This document shows positions 10,712 to 54,353 of a stretch of 64,000 bases of DNA, piece after piece. The notes under the pieces were generated by a model that saw nothing but the letters and a program-made list of their open reading frames with translations, ran no database searches and was not told the origin of the DNA. This DNA comes from a virus (taxonomy: Duplodnaviria; Heunggongvirae; Uroviricota; Caudoviricetes): positions 73,429 to 137,428 of IMG/VR virus record IMGVR_UViG_3300031787_000010; one strand, written 5' to 3'. Position 1 is the stretch's first letter. Each line of letters starts with the position of its first letter. Made by a program: the position numbers and the translations under genes.

Positions 10712-10714
10712 AAC

Positions 10715-13074: not shown

Positions 13075-13080
13075 CTCTTA

Positions 13081-13938: not shown

Positions 13939-13941
13939 AAA

Positions 13942-14805: not shown

Positions 14806-14806
14806 A

Positions 14807-16555: not shown

Positions 16556-16558
16556 ACA

Positions 16559-18303: not shown

Positions 18304-18306
18304 ATT

Positions 18307-19269
18307 TTACTCCGTTAACATTGAATTGACAAGGGAATTTAAATCATGCTTTGGCTCCCATCCTAAAACTTGACGGGCTTTGTTTGAATCACCTTTTAAG
18401 TGATGAACATCTTCCGGCCGCATGAACTTTTGATCAACTTCTACCCACTCACGCCAATCTCTATCACCAAACGCAGCAGTTAAAAAGTCTTTAATGCTAT
18501 AAGTCATACCCGTTGCGAGTACATAATCATCTGGTGTATTATGCTGTAACATCAACCACATGCCATGCACATAATCTTCGGCGTGTCCCCAATCACGACG
18601 AGCATCCAAATTACCCAACTTTAATTTCTTCTTGGTGTAATGGTTCCAATTCAATTCTTTCATTGCCTTTACGAAATTAGTAATCTTTTTGGTAACGAAT
18701 AGATCTCCACGCATTGGTGATTCGTGATTAAACAGGATACCAGCACATGCAAACATTCCATATTGTACTCTATACACGTTTACCATTTGGTGAGCATATA
18801 ACTTTGCTACACCATACGGACTTACTGGACGCATCGTAGTAGTTTCACGTTGAAACCCGTCGAGGTCAACGCTGTTACCGTACATTTCAGACGTTGATGC
18901 TTGATAGAATCGTGCGTATGGAGTAATACGACGAACTGCATCTAACAACTGTGCAACTCCGATAGCATTTGCTTGCGCAGTGTATACTGGAGAGTCGAAA
19001 CTTACTTTAACGTGAGATTGTGCCGCCAGATTATAAATTTCCGTTGGCTTTACTCTATGAACTATTGCTTCCATAGAAGATGCATCAGTCAAATCACCGT
19101 AATCAAAACTTACCATCGATTCGAATTCTTTGACTGTACCCAATTCATTCTCTACTCGGTTGTGTCTACGAATGACACCGAACACTTCATAGTCTTTTTC
19201 TAAAAGTAACTTGGTAAGATAGTGACCATCTTGGCCAGTAATACCAGTAATCAATGCTCTACGCTTCAT
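18307..19269 (-). CDS. gmd: GDP-mannose 4,6-dehydratase
   Basis: MKRRALITGITGQDGHYLTKLLLEKDYEVFGVIRR closely matches the Gmd N-terminus. Start set at the Met at 19269, which gives a TAATG overlap with the upstream GT4 gene. Confidence 0.85.
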   Translation of the reverse strand: MKRRALITGITGQDGHYLTKLLLEKDYEVFGVIRRHNRVENELGTVKEFESMVSFDYGDLTDASSMEAIVHRVKPTEIYNLAAQSHVKVSFDSPVYTAQANAIGVAQLLDAVRRITPYARFYQASTSEMYGNSVDLDGFQRETTTMRPVSPYGVAKLYAHQMVNVYRVQYGMFACAGILFNHESPMRGDLFVTKKITNFVKAMKELNWNHYTKKKLKLGNLDARRDWGHAEDYVHGMWLMLQHNTPDDYVLATGMTYSIKDFLTAAFGDRDWREWVEVDQKFMRPEDVHHLKGDSNKARQVLGWEPKHDLNSLVNSMLTE

Positions 19270-21219: not shown

Positions 21220-22287
21220 TCAAATTCCATTTGGAGTTTCTGACCAAACAATAGTAAATCCACTTGTACACGTTTCTGTTAATATACCATTAACAAAATT
21301 TCTAAAGTTATCGAAGCTGGAAAACTTCTCCAGTTTCCCGTCAAGAATGATACCAAAATGTCCTACCTGTTTCAATACATCTGCTTTGTTGATAATGACT
21401 TGTGTAACGCCATTGATATTAGCAGCCATTATCACTCGGTCAAGATTCATCCAATTTACTTTACGTGGGCGGCCTGTAGTTGCTCCGAACTCAGCACCGA
21501 CGCGTTGAATTTCTTGGAAGATAGGGTCAGCTTCGTTTGTATAGTCAGTTCTGTTTCCGACATATGTTTCATATGCTTTCATCGTACCAATTACTTTTCG
21601 AATACGACGAGGTGGTATACCATTTAGAACAGATGACCCAACTGTACAATGTGAACTGGTGACGTATGGATAATCACCCCAATCAATATCAAGATGAAAT
21701 CCTTGCGCACCCTCACACAACACACGATACTTGTGAAAATCTTCGTGGAGTAATTTATAAACATCGATAACTTGAAATAATTCAGATGGTCTAACCTGTA
21801 AATCTCCCATACGAACACCACTACGACCGTACTTGTCACGATACGCAGGACCGATACCTTGGCGTGTTGTACCAATCTTTACATCAGAACCATCCTCTTC
21901 AAGATGTTTATCTAACACTAGGTGAGCGCGTTTATCAACGAATATCAATCCATCTGTTTTAAATCCGGCATCGTTTAGTTCTTTAATTTCTGATTCTAGC
22001 TTGGGTATATTTACAACACAACCAGGCCCAATCACACTTTTTTTACCGTAGAGCACACCAACAGGCACCTGATGCGTCACAACCTTTTGTCCGTTGTGGT
22101 ACACCGTGTGCCCAGCGTTTGCTCCACCATTGTATCGTAGCACTATATTATAATCATCTGATGATGCTAATGCATGTGCTACTTTCCCTTTACCAGTATC
22201 TCCGTACTGAAGGTCTACGATTACATCTGCGTATACTAATCCCATATCACCCTCTACTGTATCTATCTCGTACTCGAACCAAATCAT
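21220..22287 (-). CDS. adenylosuccinate-synthetase (PurA) family protein, short form; candidate PurZ
   Basis: P-loop YGDTGKGK (PurA has GDEGKGK); GGANAGH (PurA has GGHNAGH); GTTRQGIGP, CEGAQG, YPYVTSS, GATTGRPRK, NKADVL. 355 aa versus about 430 for PurA, with the C-terminus truncated. Confidence 0.8.
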   Translation of the reverse strand: MIWFEYEIDTVEGDMGLVYADVIVDLQYGDTGKGKVAHALASSDDYNIVLRYNGGANAGHTVYHNGQKVVTHQVPVGVLYGKKSVIGPGCVVNIPKLESEIKELNDAGFKTDGLIFVDKRAHLVLDKHLEEDGSDVKIGTTRQGIGPAYRDKYGRSGVRMGDLQVRPSELFQVIDVYKLLHEDFHKYRVLCEGAQGFHLDIDWGDYPYVTSSHCTVGSSVLNGIPPRRIRKVIGTMKAYETYVGNRTDYTNEADPIFQEIQRVGAEFGATTGRPRKVNWMNLDRVIMAANINGVTQVIINKADVLKQVGHFGIILDGKLEKFSSFDNFRNFVNGILTETCTSGFTIVWSETPNGI

Positions 22288-23292: not shown

Positions 23293-24657
23293 TTAATTAT
23301 TTTCCATAAAGAACTTCAAATCTTCCGGCGTTCCCAATCCCCACATCACAGGGACATCGAATGTCTTGATCTTCTTTCCAGCACCAATCGCTTCATTGAA
23401 TACAGGACACACATAAAACTCGTTATTAACCCGAATATTCTTTTCAATCATTTGTTCTGCGAACCGAACATAATCGCTTCCATGCTTCCAGTAATAGATA
23501 CCCACGGTCGCAATATCGGAGATAGGATTCTTCTCTGCAACTTCGGTGACAAATCCATGTTCGTTAATCCTAGCAAACGACCACTTTGGATGGGTTGATT
23601 TGAATGTCACAATCCCACCATCAAGGTTCTGTTCAACCATCTTATACATAAACTCATTGCTATCCCATTCAACATACTGGTCAGAATTAGCCATCAACAA
23701 TGGTGCGTCGGTATTAATATGTTCTCTTGCCAATAGTGTAGTACATGCCGCACCCTCGGTAATTCCATCGACCTCCACAATCTTACAGTTAGGCGTGATA
23801 AGATTCAACAGCGTATCAAGGTTATACTTGGTACGATGTTCTTTCTGTACGACATAAATGAAAGTTGCCTCAACGTTCAAGTTTTCCGCAACAACCTGAA
23901 TCATTGGCTTTCCCCGTACATCAATCAATGGTTTTGGGAAAGTATATCCTGCTTGCTGGAAGCGACTTCCCGCACCAGCCATCGGTATCAATACGTTCAT
24001 CTTATCACCTTGCCACTTTGGCATCACCATTATACTTGTTTGATTTAATTTTTCGTATATCTTTTCTTCCGTCAAATCTTTTGGATTATTGACACGTAGT
24101 ACATTAGCTCGACTACGTGCAGCTGCCAACAATCCCGGCGGACTATCTTCGACAATTAATGTTTCTTCCGGCAAAACCCCCATCGTACTCATTGCTTTCC
24201 AGTACATTTCAGGATGGGGTTTACTGTTCTTTACATCTTCATTTGAAATAATCAAGTCCATATACTCAATTAATCCCATCTTAGCCAAGACTGTCAATAC
24301 AGTCCGGCGGATGGAATTAGAACAACATGCAATCTTATATTTTTCACTGATCAATCTTTTGAACAGCAGTTGCAATCGTGTATCAATCGTAAGACCACCT
24401 AACGCTTCTAACGTTTTACTCTGTTTACATTTCCAAATTGGTTCGTGGAATCCCTCTGGCAATCCTTTATTTGCTGTAAGTATTTCCAACTTTTCATTGG
24501 TTTTACGACCATCATATACCGACAGATGTTCTTCCCATCCAATCACCCACTTGGGATTATTTGTGACTTCAAGTATTGCGTTGTTGAGGGATTGATAATG
24601 AATCTCTTTGGCCTCTACCAACACCCCGTCCAAATCAAATATAACTAACTTAATCAC
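23293..24657 (-). CDS. bifunctional HAD-family phosphatase/phosphomutase + sugar-phosphate nucleotidyltransferase
   Basis: N-terminal HAD motif I MIKLVIFDLDGVLVE. C-terminal NTP-transferase motif MNVLIPMAGAGSRFQQAGYTFPKPLI. Confidence 0.75.
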   Translation of the reverse strand: MIKLVIFDLDGVLVEAKEIHYQSLNNAILEVTNNPKWVIGWEEHLSVYDGRKTNEKLEILTANKGLPEGFHEPIWKCKQSKTLEALGGLTIDTRLQLLFKRLISEKYKIACCSNSIRRTVLTVLAKMGLIEYMDLIISNEDVKNSKPHPEMYWKAMSTMGVLPEETLIVEDSPPGLLAAARSRANVLRVNNPKDLTEEKIYEKLNQTSIMVMPKWQGDKMNVLIPMAGAGSRFQQAGYTFPKPLIDVRGKPMIQVVAENLNVEATFIYVVQKEHRTKYNLDTLLNLITPNCKIVEVDGITEGAACTTLLAREHINTDAPLLMANSDQYVEWDSNEFMYKMVEQNLDGGIVTFKSTHPKWSFARINEHGFVTEVAEKNPISDIATVGIYYWKHGSDYVRFAEQMIEKNIRVNNEFYVCPVFNEAIGAGKKIKTFDVPVMWGLGTPEDLKFFMENN

Positions 24658-25265
24658 AGATGCGTCTCCTTAATATAATCCCAACACATAATATTCATTG
24701 CCGCACTGACGTTAAACGAACGAAGGACTCCACGTTGCGGAATACTCAACTTATAGAAGTGTGGATTGTTTATTACTACTTCTGGTAGCCCGTGACTCTC
24801 CGAACCGAACACGAACAACGGATTCTTCAATTCCTTATACATCGGCGTGGACATATATGAACCAATTTCAACACCACCATGTTCACACAAGACCACGCTA
24901 TTCCACTTCAGCAAATACTCCAATCGTTCGTTGATTTCGGTATCCGCGTGTATCGGGTCATCAAACGTATACTGGACGATATTAATGTATTTCTCAGCCC
25001 CTACTGTGGACCGCTTATCGAATTTCTTTCGTCCAAAGATATAAAAGTTCTCTGCACCCAATAGACACGCAGACCGAATCATCATTCCGATATTGAGTTC
25101 ACCCGTAATGTTGATACACGCCACGGAGAACCGACGCTGTTCACTCATCGTGATAGCGACATTCTGTTCGTAGGTATTCGTCTTATACTCATCACGAACG
25201 TTGTAATGATTACTAGCCGTATCGGCAATAATCTTACTATAGTTCACCATTGGATTTTCTTTCAT
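24654..25265 (-). CDS. SpoU/TrmH-family RNA 2'-O-ribose methyltransferase
   Basis: SPOUT motifs LVFGSESHGLP and IPQRGVLRSFNVSAAMNIMCW. Start moved to the Met at 25265 (MKENPMVNY), which has a GAGG RBS and the promoter immediately upstream. Confidence 0.75.
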   Translation of the reverse strand: MKENPMVNYSKIIADTASNHYNVRDEYKTNTYEQNVAITMSEQRRFSVACINITGELNIGMMIRSACLLGAENFYIFGRKKFDKRSTVGAEKYINIVQYTFDDPIHADTEINERLEYLLKWNSVVLCEHGGVEIGSYMSTPMYKELKNPLFVFGSESHGLPEVVINNPHFYKLSIPQRGVLRSFNVSAAMNIMCWDYIKETHL

Positions 25266-25293
25266 AGAAATGACCTCGCAGAAGTATACTCTA

Positions 25294-25322
25294 AATATAC
25301 CATCTGCGAGGCCACTTGTCAA
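25294..25322 (-). promoter_or_regulatory. sigma70 consensus promoter TTGACA-N17-TATATT upstream of the SpoU-like gene
   Basis: The -10 is bracketed by the 9-bp inverted repeat CCTCGCAGA/TCTGCGAGG (25274-25282 and 25303-25311). Confidence 0.5.
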
Positions 25323-25327
25323 GTCTA

Positions 25328-25654
25328 TTAAATACCATTTAATTTGGTACATTCAAAGTTTAGCCCATACGAAATCCTATAATAAGGATATATTAGTCTG
25401 TCTATAAGGGGGAAACAATATAAATCTTTTTTATAGCCCCGTAGGATTACTTCAACCGTATCAGCTTTTCTAGCATACCCAATATCAGTTGAATCAATAT
25501 CGGCGAATAACGTATGATTTTTGTGGTAAATCGTTTTTTGATTTTTGTTGACAATGACTTCCAAACTATCATATGTTTTTCTGTCGTAGGAATAAACGAC
25601 TTTAATTTGACTTGTCTGTAGAGCGAGACTAAACGTTATAGCTTTTATGAACAC
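25328..25654 (-). CDS. hypothetical protein (108 aa)
   Basis: ORF between the secreted protein gene and the SpoU promoter. Confidence 0.3.
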   Translation of the reverse strand: MFIKAITFSLALQTSQIKVVYSYDRKTYDSLEVIVNKNQKTIYHKNHTLFADIDSTDIGYARKADTVEVILRGYKKDLYCFPLIDRLIYPYYRISYGLNFECTKLNGI

Positions 25655-32247: not shown

Positions 32248-33066
32248 TTACATAACCTGTTGTTTGTTTGCCCAGCCGTTATCCACACCTTGTAGCACTT
32301 CTATCTTGTCCATCTTCCCATCTTTTACATACACCTTCTGGATAAGTTGTGTGTATTCTTTAATATCCTTATACGACATAATAGGAATCTTCAAATCGTT
32401 TAGTATCCGTTTCTTCTCTTTCTTATTACAGAGGAAATAGATGTATCGATGTTTTGCCGTTTCTTCTTTACGCCAGAATGTATGTCCAATCGTACTGGCA
32501 AGGTTCTCTACGTTTTTATTTCCGTATCGCTCCCCTACTGTACGACTATGAATCCAATCACTATGTTCAAACAATCTGATGGAATAATCAGGCATCAGCT
32601 TCGATACACCACATCCTTGATATAACCAATTCGTTGCCCGATAGATAGTTCCCGTGTGTTCTTGTTCTGGGTCAGCGTAACTCACCAAGACTTTCACTTC
32701 TGGCGCGTTGTACTTTAACCACCGAAAGGATTCCCCAAGAAAATGACTTTCCAAGTTCTTCCCATATCCATCCAAACACACTAACCGAGTAAGTTCCAAC
32801 ACCTCATCCAGTTCTAACGGATGAGTTTTTGTAATAGAAGCTACTGTGCGATTACTTACGGGATGTCCATATGTCATTACGCCAATAAGCTTTTCACTCT
32901 GTCCTTCAAAGAATGAATGTGATTCTTCGATATGATAGAGCCCTAACGCATATCGACAACTAGACGACTTATGCGTGTAATGATGTTTAATGATAAACGA
33001 CGCCGCCACATCTTTGTTGATATGGCGGACAATCGTTTTACCAGTATTGACGTAACCTTCTTCCAT
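32248..33066 (-). CDS. conserved hypothetical protein (possible acyltransferase-like fold)
   Basis: 272 aa with a YADPEQEHTGTIYRATNWLYQG motif; function not recognised. Confidence 0.4.
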   Translation of the reverse strand: MEEGYVNTGKTIVRHINKDVAASFIIKHHYTHKSSSCRYALGLYHIEESHSFFEGQSEKLIGVMTYGHPVSNRTVASITKTHPLELDEVLELTRLVCLDGYGKNLESHFLGESFRWLKYNAPEVKVLVSYADPEQEHTGTIYRATNWLYQGCGVSKLMPDYSIRLFEHSDWIHSRTVGERYGNKNVENLASTIGHTFWRKEETAKHRYIYFLCNKKEKKRILNDLKIPIMSYKDIKEYTQLIQKVYVKDGKMDKIEVLQGVDNGWANKQQVM

Positions 33067-36169: not shown

Positions 36170-36420
36170 TAGTCGCCTTTTGTTTGTGGCTTTAGTGTAT
36201 CAACGAATGTTTCAATCCGATATGAAATCTGTGCAAGATACAAAAGTATCCCATCCAGTATCTTCATAAAAATAGCAACCGGCCAAAAAATCCAGTAGAA
36301 CAACGACGGTTCATACTTTCCAATCAATCCCATTTTAGCACAGATAATCATAAACAGAAAACCAAATGCGAAATATGCTGCAAGACCAATAATAAATCCC
36401 ATAGTAGTAACAGTAATCAT
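36169..36420 (-). CDS. small membrane protein
   Basis: Two predicted transmembrane helices. Confidence 0.4.
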   Translation of the reverse strand: MITVTTMGFIIGLAAYFAFGFLFMIICAKMGLIGKYEPSLFYWIFWPVAIFMKILDGILLYLAQISYRIETFVDTLKPQTKGD

Positions 36421-37598
36421 CGTCCGACATCTCCTAGATAAGTTTCTTTTGCCTCATCCCACGACAGATTAATCAAATTATTATAATACAAAATCTCTGG
36501 CTTGATACGTCCCTGCTCATAGAGATTAAGATACCGCTGAATGGCCTTCGGCCTCCACCAATCTAACACAGCGTCCACATCCTTTTCAAGTTTCTTCAGC
36601 GGTACCAATTGTTCCTCTGTAATCTCTCCCTTCAAGAACTCCCGTGTATTCTCATACAACGGAGCATAATACACTCCACGTTCAAATCCATGCTTATACT
36701 TGGACTGACTTATTCCCACAGCCTTAAAGATGATAGAAAGGATTTGCTGTTTAATTCCAGTAACAGGGCCGTGAGCCGTATCTTTCGAACGAATCTTTTT
36801 ATCGTATTCATCTGCCATATTCTCCTTAATCCACTGGTGCCATTCATCGTATACATCATCATCGGGTTTGATAGCGATTGCTCCCTTACTCAAACCCATC
36901 TCCTTCCAGAACGGAATACGTTGGTACATACTGTGACCACCATACAAAGACGTTGTGGTGAGTCCCGCCAGTTTATTATTGTACAGTTTTTCCCATACAT
37001 CAGCAACAACTTTTGTAGTCAACATTGATGCAACAAGCTTCCCACCCAAGAAGTTATATCCGAATGGCTGGGTTGCCATAATACACGTGCCAATAGCAGA
37101 GTTATTCAACTTTCCCTTCAGCTTGGTGTCCTTGTCCCAACCAATCCAGCTGTCACGGCACGTAATCGCAATAACATCACTACCCAACGAGACAGCACCA
37201 AGATACTTTCCAGTAGGTTCATCATAAACAAGAAACTTCAAGAAACGACCGGGGTTCTGGTCGAACTCCATTGTATGTGAAAACACTCGAAGCATCAACC
37301 AATCTACTTCATCATTGCTCTTGGGTACAACGTAACGAATCCGTGGCTGAAGAGCGTTGATTTCAGCCACGGTCTGTTCTTTATTCATAATGTCGGTGGG
37401 CGTCCAGATTTTTGCTTTCACAATTCTGGACGGGTCCACCTTATTCGCATAATATCCTTTGACTTCCTTCCACTTCTTGTAGAGCGTCTGTTCCTGCACG
37501 GGCATGGTTTTAAGCATGTCCATATTATCAACGAAGCGTTTCTTCGCATCGTCAATAGAAATTTCTGGTACATCAAAGAATTCAGCGAATTTAGTCAT
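36417..37598 (-). CDS. hypothetical protein (393 aa)
   Basis: Start placed at ATG (MTKFAEF); the ORF track used an upstream TTG. Confidence 0.5.
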   Translation of the reverse strand: MTKFAEFFDVPEISIDDAKKRFVDNMDMLKTMPVQEQTLYKKWKEVKGYYANKVDPSRIVKAKIWTPTDIMNKEQTVAEINALQPRIRYVVPKSNDEVDWLMLRVFSHTMEFDQNPGRFLKFLVYDEPTGKYLGAVSLGSDVIAITCRDSWIGWDKDTKLKGKLNNSAIGTCIMATQPFGYNFLGGKLVASMLTTKVVADVWEKLYNNKLAGLTTTSLYGGHSMYQRIPFWKEMGLSKGAIAIKPDDDVYDEWHQWIKENMADEYDKKIRSKDTAHGPVTGIKQQILSIIFKAVGISQSKYKHGFERGVYYAPLYENTREFLKGEITEEQLVPLKKLEKDVDAVLDWWRPKAIQRYLNLYEQGRIKPEILYYNNLINLSWDEAKETYLGDVGR

Positions 37599-37709
37599 TA
37601 TTATTTCCAAAAAGTTTTTTAAGAAGTTTGTGCATACCCATCACGAACAATCCAAATCCAAACACGAACAATCCCCAATACTGGTCGATGTCATTCTGTT
37701 CGGTTGTCA

Positions 37710-40910: not shown

Positions 40911-41312
40911 TTAATCCCACAAATGTTCGTAATACTTTCCAAACAATCGAAATCCATTGGCAATACGTTCGTGATGTGCTTCACGATGTTCCCAATCAAC
41001 ATCATCTATTAATTTACTTTCAAACGCAAAAATCATTTCATCCATTATCCAATCCCACCGCTTGAAATGGTTATCGTCTGTATCCCATTCATTTTCGGTA
41101 GGTGGTGCTGCTGATGTACGAAGGTGTTCAGGAACATCTGCATCGTCTGTAAATGGAGCACCATGTTTGGTTTCTCTCAACTGTTTCAGCATAGGAGCAA
41201 CGATATAGGCCAACGTATGGTCCATGCTCCAAGTATCCCACGGATCAATCTTCACAGAAATCTTCCGTTCTTTTTTGCTATTCTTTGGATATCTGCCTAT
41301 GTAGACTTTCAT
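40911..41312 (-). CDS. hypothetical protein (133 aa)
   Basis: ORF in operon context. Confidence 0.4.
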   Translation of the reverse strand: MKVYIGRYPKNSKKERKISVKIDPWDTWSMDHTLAYIVAPMLKQLRETKHGAPFTDDADVPEHLRTSAAPPTENEWDTDDNHFKRWDWIMDEMIFAFESKLIDDVDWEHREAHHERIANGFRLFGKYYEHLWD

Positions 41313-41823
41313 TTCGTAACATCCTATTCAGAAGTTGATAATCAAAAAGCGGACCTGGGTCACGTTTACGTCCTAAAGGCGTTGCCACATCCGAATGCCC
41401 TATGATTGTTCTTGATGTACTATCGGGAAATCGTTCTTGTAACGATAGAATCAACCACGTTAAACTATTATACTGATTCAATGTATATGGCCCACTAATA
41501 CCGTTTTCCAAACATATCCCGATACTATATCGATTAATACGAAGCATTCCATTCCAATATGACAACCCAACGTGAGACGCCTCATATTTTGGATCTAATA
41601 GTTTGACAATCGTACCATTTGCTTGAATATAATAATGATAACTCAATCGACGTTTAATCAAAGTACGCCGTGCTGTATTATAACCAGCGGTCCCACCATC
41701 ATTGTGTAATACTATATAGTTAACCGTTGTATCTCGAATTGTCAAGTGCCGTATTGGTAGCGGCCTATTCAATACTGTAGGAACTGTTAGTTGAAAAAAT
41801 AAAAGTAGTGTGTATACAAACAT
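41278..41823 (-). CDS. N-acetylmuramoyl-L-alanine amidase endolysin (amidase_2/PGRP fold) with an N-terminal hydrophobic segment
   Basis: IVLHNDGGTAGYN...YHYYI...HSDV zinc-amidase pattern. N-terminal MFVYTLLLFFQLTVPTVL suggests signal/SAR-type export. Confidence 0.75.
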   Translation of the reverse strand: MFVYTLLLFFQLTVPTVLNRPLPIRHLTIRDTTVNYIVLHNDGGTAGYNTARRTLIKRRLSYHYYIQANGTIVKLLDPKYEASHVGLSYWNGMLRINRYSIGICLENGISGPYTLNQYNSLTWLILSLQERFPDSTSRTIIGHSDVATPLGRKRDPGPLFDYQLLNRMLRNESLHRQISKE

Positions 41824-41835
41824 ATCTTCTCCTAG

Positions 41836-41939
41836 TGGCGGCGGGAGATTCGAACTCCTATTCCTTGGCCTAGCGTAGTAAAGGATATAACAAGTAGCGA
41901 GCCCAATTTACTACCGTCGTCCCGACCGACTGCGCCGCC
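41836..41939 (-). tRNA. tRNA-like gene, atypically long (104 nt), CCA not encoded
   Basis: Minus strand GGCGGCG...CGCCGCC forms a 7-bp acceptor stem with discriminator A. A canonical T-arm GGAGTTCGAATCTCC and a D-arm GTCG-GTCGGGA-CGAC are present. The central part has an 8-bp stem GTAGTAAA/TTTACTAC enclosing a 24-nt loop, which is not a standard anticodon arm. Confidence 0.5.
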
Positions 41940-41947
41940 ATTTTTTA

Positions 41948-42226
41948 TTATTTTAGATCATCAATCATTCGCATGTGCGTTTCATACAATTTCTCTGTTC
42001 CTCTAAACTGTCCATTCTCGACCAGTTCGTTAAACAGGTTCATCGTATCATTGAACCTCTGATTATAAATAGATTTGATTCCAAACAACATATTCATAAT
42101 CTCATCTTGATGCTTTGCTGGGATCTCACTATCCGCAACATAACTAGCGATGGTATCCACATCATCGGTTACATGCCAACACTGCATAATCATCTCTTCA
42201 AATAAAAATCGGTCACGTTTCTGCAT
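41948..42226 (-). CDS. hypothetical protein
   Basis: Start set at the internal Met MQKRDRF to avoid a 95-nt overlap. Confidence 0.4.
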   Translation of the reverse strand: MQKRDRFLFEEMIMQCWHVTDDVDTIASYVADSEIPAKHQDEIMNMLFGIKSIYNQRFNDTMNLFNELVENGQFRGTEKLYETHMRMIDDLK

Positions 42227-42947
42227 GATACTTCTCCTTTGGTAAATAAACGGTACCACCACACTCTTCAATAAAAGTAACAAACTCATCAACACTTGCA
42301 CCAGCAAACAACGCCTTATCAGGATACTTCATCAACCACGGAGTCAACTTATTGTTAATCATTTCTACAGAGTATCGGCTATTTGGTCCCATATCACCAG
42401 GCGTTTCTGCTCCACAATAGTCATAAGCAACCTTATAGATTTCCCACTTCGGAGTACCATCTTCGTTCCAATCCCTCGGGTCTTTTTCCCTACGTCCATC
42501 TGAATAGTAGAAGATAGTCGGTTCGTATGGCGTTCCAGCATTGTGTTCATATGGAGCATCATTCCAATCATCACCCCATTGCTTGCTAAGCTCTTTAGTA
42601 GTGAAGTAGGCAAACCCGTGCCTATCAATCATACACAACTTGAAATTCTTGGTAGTAGTAACCATACAGTCACACAATGATGCAGTACCATAGTTTAACT
42701 TCCCACACTTCGGACAATCCCACTCTTGACGAGGGTTCATCCAATACGGTTGCCGTAGTGCAATAGATACATCTTCCTTCACCCGATTACATTCGGCCCG
42801 CACTTCATCATACGCCTGAATCAGTTCGTCAAGGTCATATGACGAAAAGTTCTCAAGCGGTCTACGGAGTTTAGTAATAATTTTATGTTCTTTCATAGTT
42901 TCTCCTCTAAAATGCATTACGCGCTTTACCGGTATCCAATAGGTCAT
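42213..42947 (-). CDS. hypothetical protein (244 aa)
   Basis: ORF in operon context. Confidence 0.45.
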   Translation of the reverse strand: MTYWIPVKRVMHFRGETMKEHKIITKLRRPLENFSSYDLDELIQAYDEVRAECNRVKEDVSIALRQPYWMNPRQEWDCPKCGKLNYGTASLCDCMVTTTKNFKLCMIDRHGFAYFTTKELSKQWGDDWNDAPYEHNAGTPYEPTIFYYSDGRREKDPRDWNEDGTPKWEIYKVAYDYCGAETPGDMGPNSRYSVEMINNKLTPWLMKYPDKALFAGASVDEFVTFIEECGGTVYLPKEKYHAET

Positions 42948-46452: not shown

Positions 46453-47217
46453 CTAGTTCCAGTAATTTACTTTGGCTTTTTCAAAGTGTTTGAGATTATT
46501 TCTATTGAAGAAGTTGACGGTCATATACCATAGCATCCCCAAGTATCCTAACTTCTTGAATCGACGTTCATCTTGACCGAAGTAGTGGTCACCGATTTGA
46601 AAATATTTAGCATGATATTCTCTGCTCAATATATAATCTTCTGATGTCTCATACTTGTTCGGAAATGCACCGAAGTACTCAAATGCATCTCGTCTAGTGA
46701 GAAAGAATGCCCCAATCGCAAATGGAGTTTTTTTGGTCATAATCTTATTGATAATATTGAATGCCCAGAAAAAGAATGAAGCACGTAAATCACTTCCATA
46801 ATTTTTGATGTTCAATGTCATCAAATCCAGATTGAATGTTCGCATCTGATATAAGGTATCACTAATCGCTCGTGGATGAAAGAATCGGACATCAGCATCC
46901 AAGAACAGTATATACGGAGTAGTAACTAATTTCGCACCGTTGTTTCGTCCAACAGATACATTTCCACCTTTGATGACTTCGATATTGAGGTCACCCTTGT
47001 ACGTGTTTATAAGAGGGACAGTAGCATCGGTACTATCGGCATCTGCGATAATGATGCGGACATCTCCAATATCGTGCTGTTGAAGCAAATCTTCCAATAA
47101 AGGGACAATATAGTTTTCTTCATTCTTACACGGGATAACAATCGTCAGTAAATCTTTCATACGCACCTCATTGGGGGTGTTTATATACATATCAAAACGC
47201 AAACCACTCCGACGCAT
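46453..47217 (-). CDS. glycosyltransferase family 2
   Basis: LTIVIPCKNEE...DADSTD...LDADV GT2 motifs. Confidence 0.65.
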   Translation of the reverse strand: MRRSGLRFDMYINTPNEVRMKDLLTIVIPCKNEENYIVPLLEDLLQQHDIGDVRIIIADADSTDATVPLINTYKGDLNIEVIKGGNVSVGRNNGAKLVTTPYILFLDADVRFFHPRAISDTLYQMRTFNLDLMTLNIKNYGSDLRASFFFWAFNIINKIMTKKTPFAIGAFFLTRRDAFEYFGAFPNKYETSEDYILSREYHAKYFQIGDHYFGQDERRFKKLGYLGMLWYMTVNFFNRNNLKHFEKAKVNYWN

Positions 47218-49714
47218 TCTGATTGACTTCGGTGGGAATGTTTCCCCATTTCAGTGCGGAATAAAAATCATCCAATTTATTTCTTAATTCATTATCGAAC
47301 AAGGCATCGGTATCGATATACTGTTGAATAAAGTCGGTGATTTGTGGAGGATCTTGATATCCCTTAACTGCTACCGCTTCAATCTGTAACGGGTTCTTTT
47401 TCAGATAAACATACTTAATCTTTTCACCATCTGAAATCGGTTCGTATCGGTCATCGATTCCAAAGTGTACCAGCAATCGATTATAGATAATAGCCGACTT
47501 AATGTGGGCGGGAGTAGACTTCTTTGCCGCCTTCAACCCCACCACGTTATCCATTACATATTCAGAGATGTTATTTGCCGCAGTATTTCGAGCAATATCT
47601 AGATAGTTTCTATCATCCAACGATGCCTTGAACTCCAAGATTTTAGTGTCCATTTCCTCTTTATGCATACCCTTCAAAATATCCTTCAACATCTGACGCA
47701 TGAAGTCACCAAATGCTTTCGGGAAACTTGAACGAACTACATCCAATCCCTTAACCACCATCTTACTGACATCTTGACTCGTTTCCAAATCATACACCTT
47801 ATCAAGTGCATATCGCTTCTTTGATACCCAGAACCCCGTAGATGCAACGGATTCACCCTTGATGTAAAAACGATGCGAATTGCAATTAAAAGCACGTTTT
47901 GCGAACGTGTCATAAAATTTATTTAACAATGCTTCCATCTCACGTGCTTTTTCAATCGTAAACTGCTTTGCATCAGCGTCTGGTGGAAGGATAGGTTTTG
48001 CTGAAGCATAGATGGAGTCGGTGTCGATATACGTTACATAGTCCCCCGCCTCTCCCAACAACTTTTCATACTGCTTGTTTACTAATTTGGCACTAGATTT
48101 AATAACGTCTTGTCCTGTAATTGTAACCGCAGCAGCGTTGTCAACGTCATAGAAACGGAACACAGGCAACCCAAGAACACCATACAACGAATTCAAGAAA
48201 ATCTTCTGAATATGTTGGCGTCGGTCATAATAGTCTGCCATTTCCTTGTTTCCTTCGTTGACATACTTCTTCATCGTGTTCTTATATTCGACACGCTGAC
48301 TAAACCACGTATCAAGAACTTCTGGAATAATACCCTTCTTATCGTTCGTATACAGTACACCATTCGAACTTACCGATAGATTATTATCCGTAATGAATTC
48401 CATAAATGTATCGTAGTCCATTTCCATAGAAGAGTCTGTACCCTTTTCCTCAACAACATAAGCAGTAATCTCTTTACGGAAATGTTGTTCCATATTCCAG
48501 TTCCGAACAAATCCAATCTTCGTTTCTGGGCTGATGTTAAGACTCATAATGATGGATGGATACAGCGATTGCAAGTCGAGAGAATATACCCAATCATACA
48601 AACCAGGTACCGGCTCTTTCACATATGCACCGATAAACCCTTCCTCTCCACGGTCAAGTGCTTCCATCTTCTCACGACTATCTTGCGGTTTATCCGTCAC
48701 GATAATTCCCTTACGATGAAGGTAAGTGACGATGGTGCCTTCGAGGAATCGTGACGACATTGGATAGTCCTCATACGGCACGTGTCCGATGTGACAAATA
48801 CCACGCACAAGTTCGATGAGCTTCAACTTCTTGTCAAGCTCAACAATGATACGCACGTCTTGTAGGTTATACTCAATAAACTTATCAAGGTCATCTCGAA
48901 ACAATTGATCGAGAGAACCTTCATATGGAATCTTACCCATATTGACTTCAATGCGACCAATTGTATCAAGTCGATAGTTTGGTTGCTGTGTATAAGTAAA
49001 CTTCTTGTATAGGTCAAGATAGTCCAGCGAACTTACTCCAGCAATTCTATATTTTTCCTGTCGTTCGGAATATTTTACCTTACCGATTGGGGACAGCCGA
49101 TTGGCAACAGAGGGACCGCAGACTTGTCGGATACGATTATACAAATATGGTACGTCGAAATAGTTACTATTCCAACCGGTGATGATTGTGGGTTGAATTT
49201 CTTCGTACAAGGAGATGAACTTATGGAGTAAGTCAACTTCCGTAGGACAGAATATCGTATCCACTTCTTCCGTCATTCTATTGTCGTACAACTTTGTTGT
49301 ATCAAGTACGAACACCGTGTATTTGTTTGTTGTTGGATCATATGCAGCAATTGAAGTGATTTCATTATTAGGCTTATGAATATTTGGAATACCATTTGCC
49401 ATCGACACCTCAATATCGAAAAACATCACAATGTTCCCTTCGGACGGCGTATCCTCGTCTAGATAAACATCCGTCAACACCCGTGTTTCTTTTGGCAAGT
49501 CACTCTCAAACACGTTTGGGTGTCCACGCATAAATCGGCGTGTCTTACTCAAACGTTCACCCGTCATACTTATAAACTTGCCCTTCGGGTCTTTTACATA
49601 TGCATAATTGAAATCTGCCCACGGCAAAATAATCAACCCCTGTTTATCGTCCCAAATATAAACAGTAGGTGATTCATCACCGTGCATATCAACATATATG
49701 TTTTTATAAGCCAT
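47192..49714 (-). CDS. family-B DNA polymerase with 3'-5' exonuclease
   Basis: Exo I FFDIEV, pol motif B KIFLNSLYGVLG, motif C YIDTDSIY; 840 aa. Confidence 0.9.
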   Translation of the reverse strand: MAYKNIYVDMHGDESPTVYIWDDKQGLIILPWADFNYAYVKDPKGKFISMTGERLSKTRRFMRGHPNVFESDLPKETRVLTDVYLDEDTPSEGNIVMFFDIEVSMANGIPNIHKPNNEITSIAAYDPTTNKYTVFVLDTTKLYDNRMTEEVDTIFCPTEVDLLHKFISLYEEIQPTIITGWNSNYFDVPYLYNRIRQVCGPSVANRLSPIGKVKYSERQEKYRIAGVSSLDYLDLYKKFTYTQQPNYRLDTIGRIEVNMGKIPYEGSLDQLFRDDLDKFIEYNLQDVRIIVELDKKLKLIELVRGICHIGHVPYEDYPMSSRFLEGTIVTYLHRKGIIVTDKPQDSREKMEALDRGEEGFIGAYVKEPVPGLYDWVYSLDLQSLYPSIIMSLNISPETKIGFVRNWNMEQHFRKEITAYVVEEKGTDSSMEMDYDTFMEFITDNNLSVSSNGVLYTNDKKGIIPEVLDTWFSQRVEYKNTMKKYVNEGNKEMADYYDRRQHIQKIFLNSLYGVLGLPVFRFYDVDNAAAVTITGQDVIKSSAKLVNKQYEKLLGEAGDYVTYIDTDSIYASAKPILPPDADAKQFTIEKAREMEALLNKFYDTFAKRAFNCNSHRFYIKGESVASTGFWVSKKRYALDKVYDLETSQDVSKMVVKGLDVVRSSFPKAFGDFMRQMLKDILKGMHKEEMDTKILEFKASLDDRNYLDIARNTAANNISEYVMDNVVGLKAAKKSTPAHIKSAIIYNRLLVHFGIDDRYEPISDGEKIKYVYLKKNPLQIEAVAVKGYQDPPQITDFIQQYIDTDALFDNELRNKLDDFYSALKWGNIPTEVNQNASEWFAF

Positions 49715-49728
49715 ATAACCTCGTTTTA

Positions 49729-49777
49729 AGTTTCACTCTTAAATATACAAAAACCCTCAACCGAAGTCAAGGGTTTT
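49729..49777 (-). terminator. composite terminator/promoter upstream of the polB gene
   Basis: Hairpin AAAACCC...GGGTTTT followed by UGUAUAUUU starts at the stop codon of the upstream gene. Inside it lies TTGACT-N17-TATATT (-35 at 49765-49770, -10 at 49742-49747). The polB RBS is ACGAGG. Confidence 0.55.
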
Positions 49778-50198
49778 AGTTTTGGTCTGACATTACTCCA
49801 CACGGCTGTCTGAATGGGAAATCGGGGTGTCCTAAATATCCAATAGCGTGTAAACTTTCGTGTACTAATATCCAGCGTTTATTACGACTTGGGTAAGGAA
49901 GATAAATAGCTGAATCAGTTGGATTAAAAAATCCTGCCAAATCAATACTACCATCTACTGCCTGTACTCGTAATTTCGAAGAGGGAATAACTACCCAGTA
50001 TATATCTTCATATTTCAGTTTAGGCTGTTTTGTATTACTACATTCCACGGCATCATTATAAGCCCGTCGCCTTATAACTTCTAGTTTAGTATTTTCTTCT
50101 GGAGTAATTTCTGGATATGGTTTTGAGCCAAAAATAACAATTAATACTATTAATATAATAGCAGTTAAAACAAGTATTAGTTTAGCTCTAGTTGTCAT
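49776..50198 (-). CDS. membrane-anchored metzincin-like zinc metallopeptidase
   Basis: N-terminal transmembrane helix and HESLHAIGYLGH (HExxHxxGxxH). Confidence 0.5.
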   Translation of the reverse strand: MTTRAKLILVLTAIILIVLIVIFGSKPYPEITPEENTKLEVIRRRAYNDAVECSNTKQPKLKYEDIYWVVIPSSKLRVQAVDGSIDLAGFFNPTDSAIYLPYPSRNKRWILVHESLHAIGYLGHPDFPFRQPCGVMSDQN

Positions 50199-50200
50199 AG

Positions 50201-50620
50201 TTACACTCCCGTTGAACCGAATCCCCCAGCTCCACGTTGGTCAGATGATATTACTTCCGTAACTTCTTCTACACTAAAATTAACTGTAGGGATTAGTACA
50301 AGTTGTGCAATCTTTTCACCAGGAGTAAGATTGATTAAGCTCTCTGTCCCATTATATAATGCGATACAAATTTCACCGATGTATCCATTATCAATAACTC
50401 CTGCAACGGTGAAGAGTCCACGCTTTGTTGCAACAGAAGAACGGTCTTTAATGAATCCACCATATCCTTCTGGAAATTGAATAGCGATTCCCGTTTTAAC
50501 AACTCGCGTTTCTGCTGGGAATATTGCCGTGGCTTCATCACAAAACAAATCATATCCCAAATCACCAGCATGTGCTTTCTGCGGCAGTGTCGCAGTTCTA
50601 GATAACCTTTTTACTTTCAT
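50201..50620 (-). CDS. dut: dUTP diphosphatase (trimeric dUTPase)
   Basis: AGDLGYDL, GVIDNGYIGEI and RGAGGFGSTG motifs. Confidence 0.85.
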   Translation of the reverse strand: MKVKRLSRTATLPQKAHAGDLGYDLFCDEATAIFPAETRVVKTGIAIQFPEGYGGFIKDRSSVATKRGLFTVAGVIDNGYIGEICIALYNGTESLINLTPGEKIAQLVLIPTVNFSVEEVTEVISSDQRGAGGFGSTGV

Positions 50621-51009
50621 TATATAATCTCACTATGATTTCTGAAGGCTGTGTCCACTGCTTCTTGTATAAAACCTAACATTGCGGTTTCATCACCACC
50701 ACCTTCTCTTGTATGTATTTGCTGACCTTTATAGAACACTTTGAAATGTGGAACTCCTTTTACTCCCCAAGTTTCTAAGCAATAATCTTTTTGTTCTTGT
50801 GGTTCCCATGCATTTATTCTGTAAAACTTTATGTTGGCATTAAGTTTATCAAAATACGACGCAGCTGATTCATAATGAGGCATTGTAGCTTTACACGGAC
50901 CACATGTTGCTCCGAAGAACATAAGAACATGCATCGCATCATCTGCGGGAACGCCTGATTCAGGCTGCATGTCTTTCATTGTTATTTCTGTAACCATAAC
51001 TGTCTCCAT
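50620..51009 (-). CDS. thioredoxin-like protein
   Basis: CGPC active-site motif. Confidence 0.65.
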   Translation of the reverse strand: METVMVTEITMKDMQPESGVPADDAMHVLMFFGATCGPCKATMPHYESAASYFDKLNANIKFYRINAWEPQEQKDYCLETWGVKGVPHFKVFYKGQQIHTREGGGDETAMLGFIQEAVDTAFRNHSEII

Positions 51010-51391
51010 TTTTGTTTATCAACTTCTTTATTTTGTTTCTAACTGATTTGGTGTTTCCGTTTATTTCCGATTCCCACAACGATAAAAACTTAAACCCTAG
51101 TGATTCAAAATGAGTTTTTCTACACTCATCTCTCTTCCATATTTGTGCTGCAGTTTTCTTTTTACCTCTATTGAAAAAATCATATGAGTATTTCTGTGGA
51201 TTGCAATGCCAGAAATCTCCATATACTTCTATAATATATTTATCTTCTACTAAAAAGTCAACATTGTATTTGTCAATAGAAGTTTGAATCTTAAAAGAGA
51301 CATTCATCTCTTTTAGCATATTATAAATTTTAGTTTCTATGTTGTTGAGAGAACTAATAGACTGTTTTTTAAGTTTGGGCTTTCGGCCCAT
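50960..51391 (-). CDS. Vsr/DUF559-type PD-(D/E)XK endonuclease (possible homing-endonuclease-like insertion)
   Basis: VDFLVEDKYIIEVYGDFWH ... GFKFLSLWESEI matches the DUF559 pattern. It sits between two thioredoxin genes. Confidence 0.55.
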   Translation of the reverse strand: MGRKPKLKKQSISSLNNIETKIYNMLKEMNVSFKIQTSIDKYNVDFLVEDKYIIEVYGDFWHCNPQKYSYDFFNRGKKKTAAQIWKRDECRKTHFESLGFKFLSLWESEINGNTKSVRNKIKKLINKNGDSYGYRNNNERHAA

Positions 51392-51424
51392 AGTTAAACT
51401 CTACAAGAATTCATTTGACGTATC

Positions 51425-51742
51425 TCAAAATTTTATAGCACGTTCAATTTTACTTTTAATTTTATCTTTTGGAGTTACACCAAAAGCAAATTCTCTTTTA
51501 CGTCCATCTTTGTACACCAACAACATAGGTACCGCCTTTGCTCCTGTGAACGTCTTTGCATCCGGCACCGTGTCGATGTCTACCTTATAAAATTGTAGTG
51601 GAATCTCTTCCGATAACTCTTCAATTACTGGTAGCATCTCTTGACACGGTTGACACCAAGAAGCGTATAAATCTACCACCACTACATCATCAGCAGTAAC
51701 CGCTTCCTTTAACTCATCAATAGTCTGAATACTAGAAATCAT
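51425..51742 (-). CDS. thioredoxin
   Basis: WCQPCQ CxxC motif, 105 aa. Confidence 0.75.
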   Translation of the reverse strand: MISSIQTIDELKEAVTADDVVVVDLYASWCQPCQEMLPVIEELSEEIPLQFYKVDIDTVPDAKTFTGAKAVPMLLVYKDGRKREFAFGVTPKDKIKSKIERAIKF

Positions 51743-51782
51743 ATAATATATTTCCTTGTGTTGAATCCCTTGTGTATAAATA

Positions 51783-54353
51783 TCATCCCATCAATTCTTT
51801 TATGTTAACAAAGGTAATTCCAGAATCAATTAAAGACTGATTGTTCTTTTTGATTTCTTCAAAGAAATTCCATGCCAACACTAAAATAATATCTGGTTTA
51901 TCCTCGTTAATCTTATCCTTTGAGAAGATAGGAATCTTCACACCTGGAACATACTTTCCATGCTTTAGTGTGTTGTCCTCAACGATGTAAGAAATTTCTT
52001 CATTTGTCAATCCGAAATAGTTTAAAGCTGTGGTTGCTTTCGCTGGTGCTCCATATCCAACAATCTTTAAACCGTTCTTCTTCATCATCTTAACATTTTT
52101 AACGATGTTGTTTTTTGCCGATTCCACTCTCTTGGCAAAGTTAACATACGTTTCATATTTGTCAAGACCACATTCCAATTCTTGTGCTAAAAAGTATGAA
52201 ACACTTGCATCCACATTCTCTGGATTCTTTGCGATATAGACTCGGATAGAACCACCGTGAGTATTCACGTGCTCAACCTTATAGACTTTATAACCCAATA
52301 TATTAAAGAAGTTATTGAGTGACAACACACTCCAATAATTGAAGTGTTCGTGATAGATGTTATCGAACGTCAAATCTTGTATTGTGTTTAATAGGTATTG
52401 TACTTCAATAATCAACGAACCATCTGGCTTAAGTAACGTAAATGCGGCGTTTGCCATTTCCTTCAAGTCGTTCGCATGAGCAAATACATTTGATGCAGTA
52501 ACTACATCGGCATGACCGTGAGTACTAACGATTTCATTTGCTACTCCTGTATTGAAGAAGGAACATATTGTAGGAACTCCTGCGTTTCGTGCCAACTCTA
52601 CAATATTTTCAGCAGGTTCTACACCCAAAACTCTTACATTCTTTTCCATAAATGGCTTCAAAGCAATACCATCGTTCGAACCAATATCAACGACCAACGA
52701 CTCTTCTGTCAAATTAAACTGCTTCGTGTATGAATCGGCTGCTTGTACGAAATGTTCTCTAAATGATTTTGATGTTGACGACACATACAGATAATGCTTG
52801 AACATTTTTTCTGATGGTACTGAATATGATAGCTGACAGTTATGACTGTCTGGACTATACATCAACTCTAGTGGAAACATTTCACACGGTTCTTCTGATG
52901 AGTCTAGTAGGTTGTTTGCTAACGGTGACAGTCCCAACGATAATACCGGCTTGATATTATCGTTTCCCGTAATTCTATCTGATGTCTTGTAATCCCGTAA
53001 CAGTTCATCTCTAAACTTCTCGTCTACCAGTACGTATGGAATCGTGTGTGTAACGCCATAGTTTTCATGCTTACGTTCACCACGAACCAGATTTAAAAAG
53101 ATAGAGTCTTTAGTAAACACCATTGTATGTGCAACATTTGGACGGATAACAGACAAGTCACCTTCATTAATTACCTGTGTTTCAATCTTTGCGTTTGGTA
53201 CAGACAAATCTTTGATGACACTAATGTACTGACCCTTAATGAGTAAGCACTTCTGCTCTTGTACAGGATGATAGTGATTTGCCCGAACAGATCCTGCCTT
53301 TGATTCAATGTATCCAATCAAATTAATAGGTTCTGTTAATTCGTAGTTACTAATCTTTCCGCGTGAATCAACATATTCATCACCACCACGAAGAATATAT
53401 TCCAATCGTTCAGGCTGTTCACGTTCCGACCAGTTGGTTACCATCTCTTTAATAGCGGATGTAAGTTTATTTTGGAATGTAAATCCCGTTGATAGCAACT
53501 TTTTGTTTGATAACGTATATCCTACGTTTGGAATCTCATCATCCGTTTCAATGAGATTGGTATCTGGTTCAATCGATTTGACAATTTCTGCTACCTGCTT
53601 AACTGTCATATTCTCATCAGTTAGATGGAAGATTTCATTCTTGATGTCACTACGTTCTTCCATAAACTTAAAAGAACGCACAACATCGTGAATACAAACC
53701 AACGACTTTAATTGTACGCCGCGGCCGAATAGTTTCAATGTAGCATTTTGCGATGCCATCTTTGAAAAGAGATTTGGCATGATACCGATACGCATTGTAT
53801 CCGTAGAGTATCCATATACCGAACCCAATCGTAAGATAACATAATCCTTGCCAGATGATTTAATATCAAGTTCATTCTGGTATTTACTACGAGAATATGT
53901 TAATACCGGAGTAGGTTGCTCTGTTTCTTCAATATCAAACTTTGCGTCGGGGAATCCTTCGAACACAACGTGTGTGGAAGGGAACACAATCTTACAATGT
54001 GAAGGAATGTGTTTCAGAATATTCAGCGTACCCTGAATTGCAGTACGCTGAATCTCGTTATCCTTTTCTGTATTTGATTCGGTTTTCGTATAAGCTACAT
54101 CAGTAATACCGGCGAGATGGTGAACAACATCTGCATCCTTTAAAATTTCAGACATTTTTTCGTCGTCCAAAATACTACATTGAACGAAGTCGATTCCCCA
54201 ATCACGTAATTGCTTAACACGTTCTGAAACGAATCTATTGTCGGTAACTACAATTTTCTTAAATCGTGCTTCACCGGAATATAACTTTGTCAGTTCCGAC
54301 CCGATATATCCCAACCCGCCGGTAATTACTACTTTCTTATGTCCCATATACAT
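51783..54353 (-). CDS. tri-domain sugar-nucleotide modifying enzyme: SDR epimerase/dehydratase + cupin (ketoisomerase/3,5-epimerase-like) + class-I SAM methyltransferase
   Basis: N-terminal ITGGLGYIGSEL; central cupin (ANHYHPVQEQKCLLIKGQY); C-terminal methyltransferase motif I VVDIGSNDG. Confidence 0.7.
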   Translation of the reverse strand: MYMGHKKVVITGGLGYIGSELTKLYSGEARFKKIVVTDNRFVSERVKQLRDWGIDFVQCSILDDEKMSEILKDADVVHHLAGITDVAYTKTESNTEKDNEIQRTAIQGTLNILKHIPSHCKIVFPSTHVVFEGFPDAKFDIEETEQPTPVLTYSRSKYQNELDIKSSGKDYVILRLGSVYGYSTDTMRIGIMPNLFSKMASQNATLKLFGRGVQLKSLVCIHDVVRSFKFMEERSDIKNEIFHLTDENMTVKQVAEIVKSIEPDTNLIETDDEIPNVGYTLSNKKLLSTGFTFQNKLTSAIKEMVTNWSEREQPERLEYILRGGDEYVDSRGKISNYELTEPINLIGYIESKAGSVRANHYHPVQEQKCLLIKGQYISVIKDLSVPNAKIETQVINEGDLSVIRPNVAHTMVFTKDSIFLNLVRGERKHENYGVTHTIPYVLVDEKFRDELLRDYKTSDRITGNDNIKPVLSLGLSPLANNLLDSSEEPCEMFPLELMYSPDSHNCQLSYSVPSEKMFKHYLYVSSTSKSFREHFVQAADSYTKQFNLTEESLVVDIGSNDGIALKPFMEKNVRVLGVEPAENIVELARNAGVPTICSFFNTGVANEIVSTHGHADVVTASNVFAHANDLKEMANAAFTLLKPDGSLIIEVQYLLNTIQDLTFDNIYHEHFNYWSVLSLNNFFNILGYKVYKVEHVNTHGGSIRVYIAKNPENVDASVSYFLAQELECGLDKYETYVNFAKRVESAKNNIVKNVKMMKKNGLKIVGYGAPAKATTALNYFGLTNEEISYIVEDNTLKHGKYVPGVKIPIFSKDKINEDKPDIILVLAWNFFEEIKKNNQSLIDSGITFVNIKELMG

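Follow-up and report, generated by a model that had tools for sequence, protein, structure and literature searches.

What does a phage gene encode when it has the ends and the side arms of a transfer RNA (tRNA), and a long stem-loop where the anticodon arm should be? The question is raised by positions 41836 to 41939 of a 64,000-nt stretch of phage DNA (positions 73,429 to 137,428 of IMG/VR record IMGVR_UViG_3300031787_000010, Caudoviricetes), hereafter the window. The original prediction, made from the letters alone, had offered three kinds of answer: a tRNA with a short intron or insertion, a suppressor or class-II decoding tRNA, or a tRNA-like regulatory or processing element. By collecting homologues of the element and examining the covariation among them, assisted by an analysis of its genomic neighbourhood, we find that it is very probably a real, non-decoding tRNA-like RNA gene, and the evidence favours the last of the three options. 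The gene belongs to a previously unannotated family of phage tRNA-like RNAs, represented here by 21 distinct homologous sequences from related uncultured phages.

A conserved tRNA-like fold

The gene is 104 nt long and lies on the minus strand, from 41939 (5') to 41836 (3'), as do 77 of the 81 long open reading frames (ORFs) in the window. In RNA order it reads GGCGGCG CA GUCG-GUCGGGA-CGAC G GUAGUAAA-(24 nt)-UUUACUAC GCUAGGCCAAGGAAUA GGAG-UUCGAAU-CUCC CGCCGCC A, and the 7-bp acceptor stem, discriminator A, D arm and T arm that had been pointed out are all present. The acceptor stem is formed by GGCGGCG (41933..41939) and CGCCGCC (41837..41843); the discriminator A at 41836 is followed by C, and CCA is not encoded at the 3' end. 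Directly 5' of the D arm (41916..41930; 4-bp stem GUCG/CGAC, 7-nt loop GUCGGGA) stand C8 and A9 (41931-41932). The place of the anticodon stem is taken by an 8-bp helix, GUAGUAAA (41907..41914) pairing with UUUACUAC (41875..41882), which closes a 24-nt apical loop, UUGGGCUCGCUACUUGUUAUAUCC (41883..41906), with a conserved core, GGGCUCGCUAC, at 41894-41904. A 16-nt conserved linker, GCUAGGCCAAGGAAUA (41859..41874), occupies the position of the variable region and leads into the T arm (41844..41858; 4-bp stem GGAG/CUCC, loop UUCGAAU). This arm had been described as canonical, which holds for its loop but not for its stem, which has 4 bp rather than 5. A covariance model of the family (R1) gives the gene 124.8 bits and has no other match in the window.

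Folded as a single sequence, the element is no better than its shuffles (z = -0.61), and the alternative central pairing that this fold proposes (GGUAGU/GCUACU, UCCUU/AAGGA) is not kept in the homologues. An identical copy of the element stands in nine near-identical metagenome contigs, which were uninformative; the key step in the search was to inspect the sequence upstream of diverged endolysin homologues. At one such locus (L017, endolysin 64% identical) compensatory changes set all of the acceptor stem (GGCGATG/CATCGCC), D stem (GACT/AGTC) and T stem (AGGG/CCCT) apart from those of the window, and the central part is nearly unchanged. Endolysin homologues likewise yielded, free of motif bias, L223/L224, L225, L016, L014/15 and the diverged L230/L231, and more members were obtained by motif scans of IMG/VR and JGI metagenomes. 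A pattern scan of GTDB genomes gave chance matches only, blastn found no match to the element in cultured phages, and the more distant relatives L001, L002, L226/227, L232 and L233/234 lack it. The window holds one copy according to R1, as does each related locus examined, and no match to such an RNA family turned up in the literature.

Covariation supports each of the four helices. In a MAFFT alignment of 16 sequences, 100% of the helix cells pair and 15 of the 23 base pairs show compensatory (two-sided) changes; none of 500 shuffles reached the observed pairing or compensatory count, and pairing fell to 40-62% when the 3' partners were slid. RNAalifold, without being given the structure, returned the identical four helices. 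The larger set of 21 sequences, placed on the model, pairs in 99.6% of cells and has compensatory changes at 16 of 23 pairs. All seven acceptor pairs are kept across the family, three of them by compensatory changes, and G1-C72 (G-U in two members), G2-C71 and C3-G70 (21 of 21) do not vary. Compensatory changes are found in three of the four D-stem pairs (GUUG/CAAC, GACU/AGUC, GUCG/CGAC) and, depending on the alignment, in two or three of the four pairs of the T stem, which is 4 bp long in every member. The 8-bp stem with a 24-nt loop noted earlier in the place of the anticodon arm turned out to be the best-supported helix of all (seven of eight pairs compensatory, 100% paired); across members its stem measures 8-10 bp and its loop 20-28 nt, about double the length of a normal arm. 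No nucleotide is left for T-stem pair 49-65, and the acceptor/T stack therefore comprises 7 + 4 = 11 bp.

The core of the molecule also behaves like that of a tRNA. G9 occurs only with C12-G23, and A9 occurs with U12-A23 or C12-G23, a pattern that fits the 9-12-23 base triple known from established tRNA structure. The description of the element as tRNA-derived or tRNA-like thus withstands comparison: acceptor, D and T arms covary, the GG of the D loop and the T loop are invariant, and position 9 tracks pair 12-23. As the alignment shows, selection acts on a four-helix cloverleaf that has a D-loop/T-loop elbow of the tRNA type; the elbow-forming loops GUCGGGA and UUCRAAU are conserved in the family, and the tertiary contact between them is predicted. 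Two members, L163 and L230, have an extra GAAA-capped hairpin in the 3' part of the linker (UAGG-GAAA-CCUA versus UAGA-GAAA-UCUA, a compensatory change from G-C to A-U). Two others, L053 (10060-10165) and L065 (748-853), are identical save for the whole D arm and position 9 (CA-GUUG...CAAC versus CG-GACU...AGUC), which suggests that recombination has exchanged a cassette-like segment between variants, rather than that compensatory mutations built up step by step. A GGG/CYY mini-hairpin in the apical motif, compatible with 20 of 21 sequences, or a pairing between apical loop and linker, likewise compatible with the sequences, could also form; each shows one-sided changes only and no two-sided covariation.

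The unpaired parts are conserved in sequence. The apical core GGGYUCGCUAC is unchanged in 20 of 21 members, and L230 has GGGUUGCUAC, a one-base deletion; the linker, GCUANGCCAAGGA, is nearly invariant and follows the pattern GCUA-N-GCCAAGGA(AUA), in which N is any base or absent. The D loop GUCGGGA is invariant but for one U-to-A change, and the T loop is UUCRAAU in all members. The members found through their endolysins, independently of any motif, retain both the apical and the linker motifs. The copies in L017/L223 share 83-85% identity with that of the window, with the differences confined to stems, as against 63-64% for the flanking endolysin and 68-71% for the ligase, so that its conservation exceeds that of neighbouring genes. 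The apical-loop core and the 16-nt linker are under strong sequence selection.

The standard detectors pass over the element. ARAGORN at default settings reported no tRNA or transfer-messenger RNA (tmRNA) throughout the 64-kb window, and when run with introns or in tmRNA mode (-m) it reported nothing at the element. Only under relaxed thresholds did it return a tRNA-Arg(CCU), and a poor one: its T stem has 4 bp, its variable region is 16 nt long and unpaired, and it requires a 23-nt intron at 31/32. Rfam gave no match to the 104-nt element at gathering thresholds and, at E<=10, nothing tRNA-related in the surrounding 351-nt window, only noise; the tRNA model RF00005 misses the element by gathering score and at E<=10 while detecting the ordinary tRNAs of L023 and L041. 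These were among the searches that the original prediction had proposed, with the thought that it would fail if scores were below threshold and no alternative fold existed; the Rfam and ARAGORN scores are below threshold, but covariation establishes a specific fold. The family escapes standard tRNA and Rfam annotation, and has hence been overlooked in phage genomes.

Departures from decoding tRNAs

In no member is there a 7-nt anticodon loop, or a 5-bp anticodon stem with U33 and an anticodon. Positions 8 and 14 are C and G, where canonical tRNA has U8 and A14. Three copies that are otherwise identical differ in the discriminator (A in L223, G in L225, U in L171); synthetases are generally sensitive to this base, and its variation argues against aminoacylation. 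The invariance of C3-G70 excludes alanine identity and hence a tmRNA-like role, and a pairing of position -1 with 73 is not conserved. We also removed in silico every single segment of 8-59 nt from the 21 members and submitted the products to ARAGORN. The deletions gave tRNAs for Ile, Glu, Asn, Phe, Tyr or Gln according to the member, and none for L230, so that a cryptic intron-bearing tRNA, with an anticodon and isotype shared across the family, was rejected. A group I intron was rejected as well, the insert being 20-28 nt as against a catalytic core of about 200 nt or more, with no Rfam intron match. We regard the RNA as non-decoding because it lacks an anticodon loop, has an 11-bp stack, carries C8/G14, has a drifting discriminator and yields no consistent spliced tRNA; the suggestions of a short intron and of a suppressor or class-II decoding tRNA are not sustained.

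The comparison with known RNAs leads in the same direction. With canonical tRNA (RF00005) the element shares the 7-bp acceptor stem, the single discriminator position, the 4-bp D stem, the GG loop, the UUCGAAU T loop, the covariation of position 9 with 12-23, the lack of an encoded CCA, and a location in line with genes and once in a tRNA cluster. It differs in having an arm of 8-10 bp and 20-28 nt instead of a 5-bp/7-nt anticodon arm, a 4-bp T stem, an 11-bp rather than 12-bp stack, C8/G14, a varying discriminator and a 16-nt conserved unpaired linker, and in scoring below RF00005 and ARAGORN thresholds. tmRNA likewise has an acceptor and T arm and a long helix with an insert in place of the anticodon arm, in an equal 5'-to-3' order; it is, however, 260-400 nt long as against about 104 nt, and the element has no G3-U70, a true D stem, no conserved reading frame and no demonstrated pseudoknots, and is negative in ARAGORN and Rfam. 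The T4 species 1 and 2 RNAs (rnaC, rnaD) are, like the element, small RNAs of T4-type phages with no known function. In T4, tRNA-Arg is followed by rnaD and rnaC, which recalls the element after tRNA-Arg in L023, and rnaC has a T arm (GGGUUCGAAUCCC) at its end together with extra long hairpins. The two T4 RNAs differ in length (119 and 139 nt), in helix arrangement and in having no sequence or model similarity to the element: R1 found nothing significant on the RNA strand of rnaC/rnaD and, with filters off, about 13 bits on the wrong strand. Unlike them, the element usually stands alone in phages without nearby tRNA genes.

YrlA, a bacterial Y RNA and partner of Rsr/Ro60 that is found in some phages too, is also non-decoding and has a tRNA-like elbow of D and T arms. 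Its 5' and 3' ends form the Ro-binding stem, and its acceptor-like helix is closed. The element differs in that its ends form the acceptor stem, with no Ro-binding helix and no Rfam match at E<=10, and no TROVE-domain gene was seen among the window proteins scanned, in a genome that is incomplete. In allo-tRNAs the anticodon loop is normal and the long variable arm is helical. They share with the element a non-canonical cloverleaf, a 4-bp T stem and a metagenomic origin, and with acceptor/T arrangements of 8/4 or 9/3 they are reported to retain a 12-bp acceptor branch (PMC5389517). The element, with 7/4 (11 bp) and no anticodon loop, differs from them. The tRNA-like structures (TLSs) of plant viruses and mascRNA also reuse the tRNA shape for RNase P/Z processing or for binding tRNA-specific host factors; these are eukaryotic systems with unrelated sequences, and the TLSs stand at genome 3' ends and are aminoacylated. 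The element matches no known RNA family among those compared. Its 7/4 acceptor/T configuration, extended conserved arm and conserved linker are, on the alignment, the hallmarks of the family.

Genomic setting

The reported position between an uncharacterised gene and an endolysin gene is confirmed. Upstream lies a small ORF of unknown function (41948..42307, minus strand; 92 aa according to gene callers in metagenome records), whose stop codon is 9 nt before the RNA. Downstream lies an Amidase_2 endolysin (41278-41823, minus strand), whose AGGAG ribosome-binding site (41829-41833) starts 3 nt past the RNA. In all cases the element occupies a variable region between DNA ligase and two conserved genes, and its immediate neighbours vary (endolysin, DUF2452, Mom-family, methyltransferases, glycosyltransferase, a HAD-like gene and others). 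DNA ligase was considered as a partner and set aside, its proximity being synteny. Across loci the upstream stop codon is 3-12 nt before G1, L023 excepted, where the element starts 4 nt after tRNA-Arg within a tRNA cluster, a placement seen in this carrier only. The next ribosome-binding site is 2-8 nt past position 73 in most loci; in a few the next gene is about 25-35 nt or more away, and it is not adjacent in L016, L023, L041, L050 and L058. No promoter or terminator of its own was found at the element loci examined, and an AT-rich box upstream, considered as a promoter, is merely the stop codon of the preceding gene. The element is probably transcribed in line with its neighbours.

The carriers are large uncultured freshwater phages (one contig, ERZ27292209 k141_1054633, measures 217 kb) with T4-type replication genes and many DNA-modification and sugar-nucleotide genes. 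Their contigs come from lakes, for instance those sampled in JGI 3300005527 and 3300031857 and in ENA ERZ27247957 and ERZ27292209. By PolB, the nearest cultured relative is Microcystis phage Mel-JY01 (45% identity), in which the element was not found in the 42 kb around PolB. Mel-JY01 has an annotated RNA ligase (L228 15354-15970) with tRNA-Leu directly after it and then two repeats of about 70 nt (AAAAAGACTTGCATACGTTGAAAAGATTTCGTAAATTTGTATTAGAGA) in an unannotated stretch; this RNA ligase-tRNA-Leu pair was set aside as unrelated. Two carriers, L041 and L023, have only one large gene in common with the window within the stretch examined. L023 has ordinary tRNAs, and L041 has two odd ones (2269-2352 and 9631-9718), a tRNA-Cys(GCA) of 84 nt with a long variable arm and a class-II shape, and a tRNA-Ser with anticodon ACU.

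Genes of the Mom family (PF25680) are common in the same variable slot: they directly flank the element in L022/L072 (L072 1598-2188), L163, L171 and L225, lie one to two genes from it in L019, L053 and L058, and in the window are represented by a gene at 32248-33066 (minus strand), about 9 kb away. A homologue of DruA, a Druantia defence protein (PF14236, E=1e-31), is encoded a few kb downstream of the element at 36417-37610 (minus strand) and is found also in L017, L223, L225 and L232; the slot in L230 has two TAGT-family genes instead. A 355-aa protein resembling adenylosuccinate synthetase (21220-22287, minus strand) scores 153.7 bits against NCBIfam PurZ, below the 300-bit cut-off, and may be a purine-salvage enzyme or the sign of a 2-aminoadenine (Z-base) genome. 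Unusually large clusters for sugar-nucleotide biosynthesis and glycosyltransferases occupy 5622-20675 and 46453-54353 (minus strand); a DegT aminotransferase is encoded there, as are several proteins of the epimerase/dehydratase type and a fusion of an epimerase with a C-methyltransferase, and the clusters point to extensive glycan or DNA hypermodification chemistry.

A possible role in trans

The best overall explanation, to which we give about even chances, is that a stand-alone gene here encodes a structured tRNA-like RNA that does not decode, is released and acts in trans. Host RNase P would cut the RNA from a polycistronic transcript at its 5' end, as for phage tRNA, and RNase Z or an equivalent would make the 3' end, with the tRNA shape providing for processing and stability. 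The product would not be aminoacylated and could not enter the ribosomal decoding site; it would act through its conserved long arm and linker by binding some partner. As a specific mechanism we tentatively prefer, at somewhat less than even chances, a decoy or mimic directed at a host factor that reads the elbow and acceptor of tRNAs, or a role as the RNA part of a phage-host ribonucleoprotein. Several observations weigh against this explanation. Excision, CCA addition and stability of the RNA are steps that we infer, and neither a protein partner nor an RNA target came to light. No conserved partner gene is adjacent to the element and no tRNA-related gene is near it; a single RNA enzyme was seen in the 64-kb window, a SpoU-family RNA 2'-O-methyltransferase (24654-25352, minus strand; weak similarity to RlmB and TrmL), a possible partner, encoded 17 kb away. 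A search of the window for complements of both motifs gave no enrichment of antisense targets. Most of the sequences come from one phage lineage, so that the covariation counts include inherited changes, and the invariance of the motifs is partly a matter of ascertainment, several members having been fetched by motif patterns.

Of the alternatives, we hold it rather improbable that the element works in cis as tRNA punctuation, a cleavage signal for RNase P and RNase Z that splits the transcript and determines where the downstream mRNA begins, how stable it is or how it is translated, with the excised RNA as a by-product. The tight packing between stop codon and ribosome-binding site, the lack of a promoter or terminator of its own, and the intact and invariant elbow and acceptor, which RNase P reads, would all suit such a signal. 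A processing signal needs neither the invariant 11-nt apical core nor the 13-nt invariant linker, however, and the downstream gene differs between phages and is non-adjacent at the five loci named above, one of which (L023) has the element inside its tRNA cluster. Least likely of all is a decaying tRNA pseudogene or an element acting at the DNA level, such as a recombination hotspot or the remnant of an attachment site, with no RNA function. A hypervariable slot with shuffled neighbours and the rejection of the element by tRNA detectors are what one might expect of it. Yet all four helices are compensatory with 99.6-100% pairing, as under selection on RNA structure, the element outconserves the adjacent coding genes, both acceptor strands are present, and a Pfam scan of about 48 of the window's 81 ORFs showed no integrase; covariation has largely refuted this explanation already.

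We consider it very unlikely that the RNA decodes after all, either as a working tRNA once a short intron has been excised or, with its anticodon arm expanded, as a suppressor or recoding tRNA. Its acceptor stem, D arm and T arm are tRNA-like, lowered ARAGORN thresholds do give the tRNA-Arg(CCU) described above, and the GGG/CYY mini-hairpin would show a 7-nt loop, YUCGCUA, with U second. The tests of identity speak against it, from the 11-bp stack, C8/G14 and unconserved discriminator to the lack of any anticodon or isotype shared after a single deletion; moreover, the proposed intron would sit at 31/32, position 37 would be U, the loop is far below the size of a group I intron, and the genes of the window read normally in the standard code. 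We put just as little weight on an aminoacylated carrier outside decoding, whether it served as the template of a tag, like a miniature tmRNA, or supplied aminoacyl groups to enzymes that modify cell wall or DNA. The order of parts is that of tmRNA (acceptor, D region, long helix, insert, T arm, acceptor), and Mom-family (GNAT-like) genes are adjacent or one to two genes off at the loci listed above. The G3-U70 alanine pair is missing, though, and the discriminator is A, G or U; reading frames stop at differing places, with an early UAA in L017 and L223, family lengths differ by non-multiples of three, the ARAGORN tmRNA search was negative, and the Mom gene of the window is distant. An antisense RNA against the host ribosome, acting for instance during 50S assembly, is very improbable too. 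UCGCUAC (41894-41900) and CAAGGAAU (41861-41868) exactly complement adjacent 7- and 8-nt segments of 23S rRNA, GUAGCGA-A-AUUCCUUG, in the universally conserved helix/loop 70 region (E. coli ~1931-1945; L235 4727-4743), which is also a reported target of MazF-type toxins, and the variant UUGCUAC of L230 still pairs through G-U. This lead is post hoc and statistically marginal (shuffled motifs reach an adjacent 7+8 in 0.9% of trials and 7+7 in 4%), the two motifs stand in crossed order when set against a contiguous target, type B members retain just 6 nt of the second motif, and the target is structured in the mature 50S subunit of ribosomes that the phage needs in working order.

Phage tRNAs can neutralise host defences that attack tRNAs. 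To our knowledge, non-decoding tRNA mimics in phages are almost unexplored, the T4 species 1 and 2 RNAs being the only classical examples that we know of, with a function that is still not known. The present family is a compact and strongly covarying case, in which the tRNA core has been kept and the decoding arm swapped for a conserved module, and these changes point to a role other than translation. Its alignment and model R1 would let others annotate the family and test what such mimics bind. Returning to the released, trans-acting RNA that we prefer, one more specific and, as it stands, unlikely version is a tRNA mimic that cannot be charged and would engage a host tRNA-binding machine by its intact elbow and acceptor, with the arm and linker giving specificity. 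Candidate machines are RNase P, an immune nuclease or toxin that attacks tRNAs, and, through the complementarity to 23S helix/loop 70, the ribosome. If this is true, large freshwater phages would have in this family a new class of factor, made of RNA, for counter-defence or host takeover.

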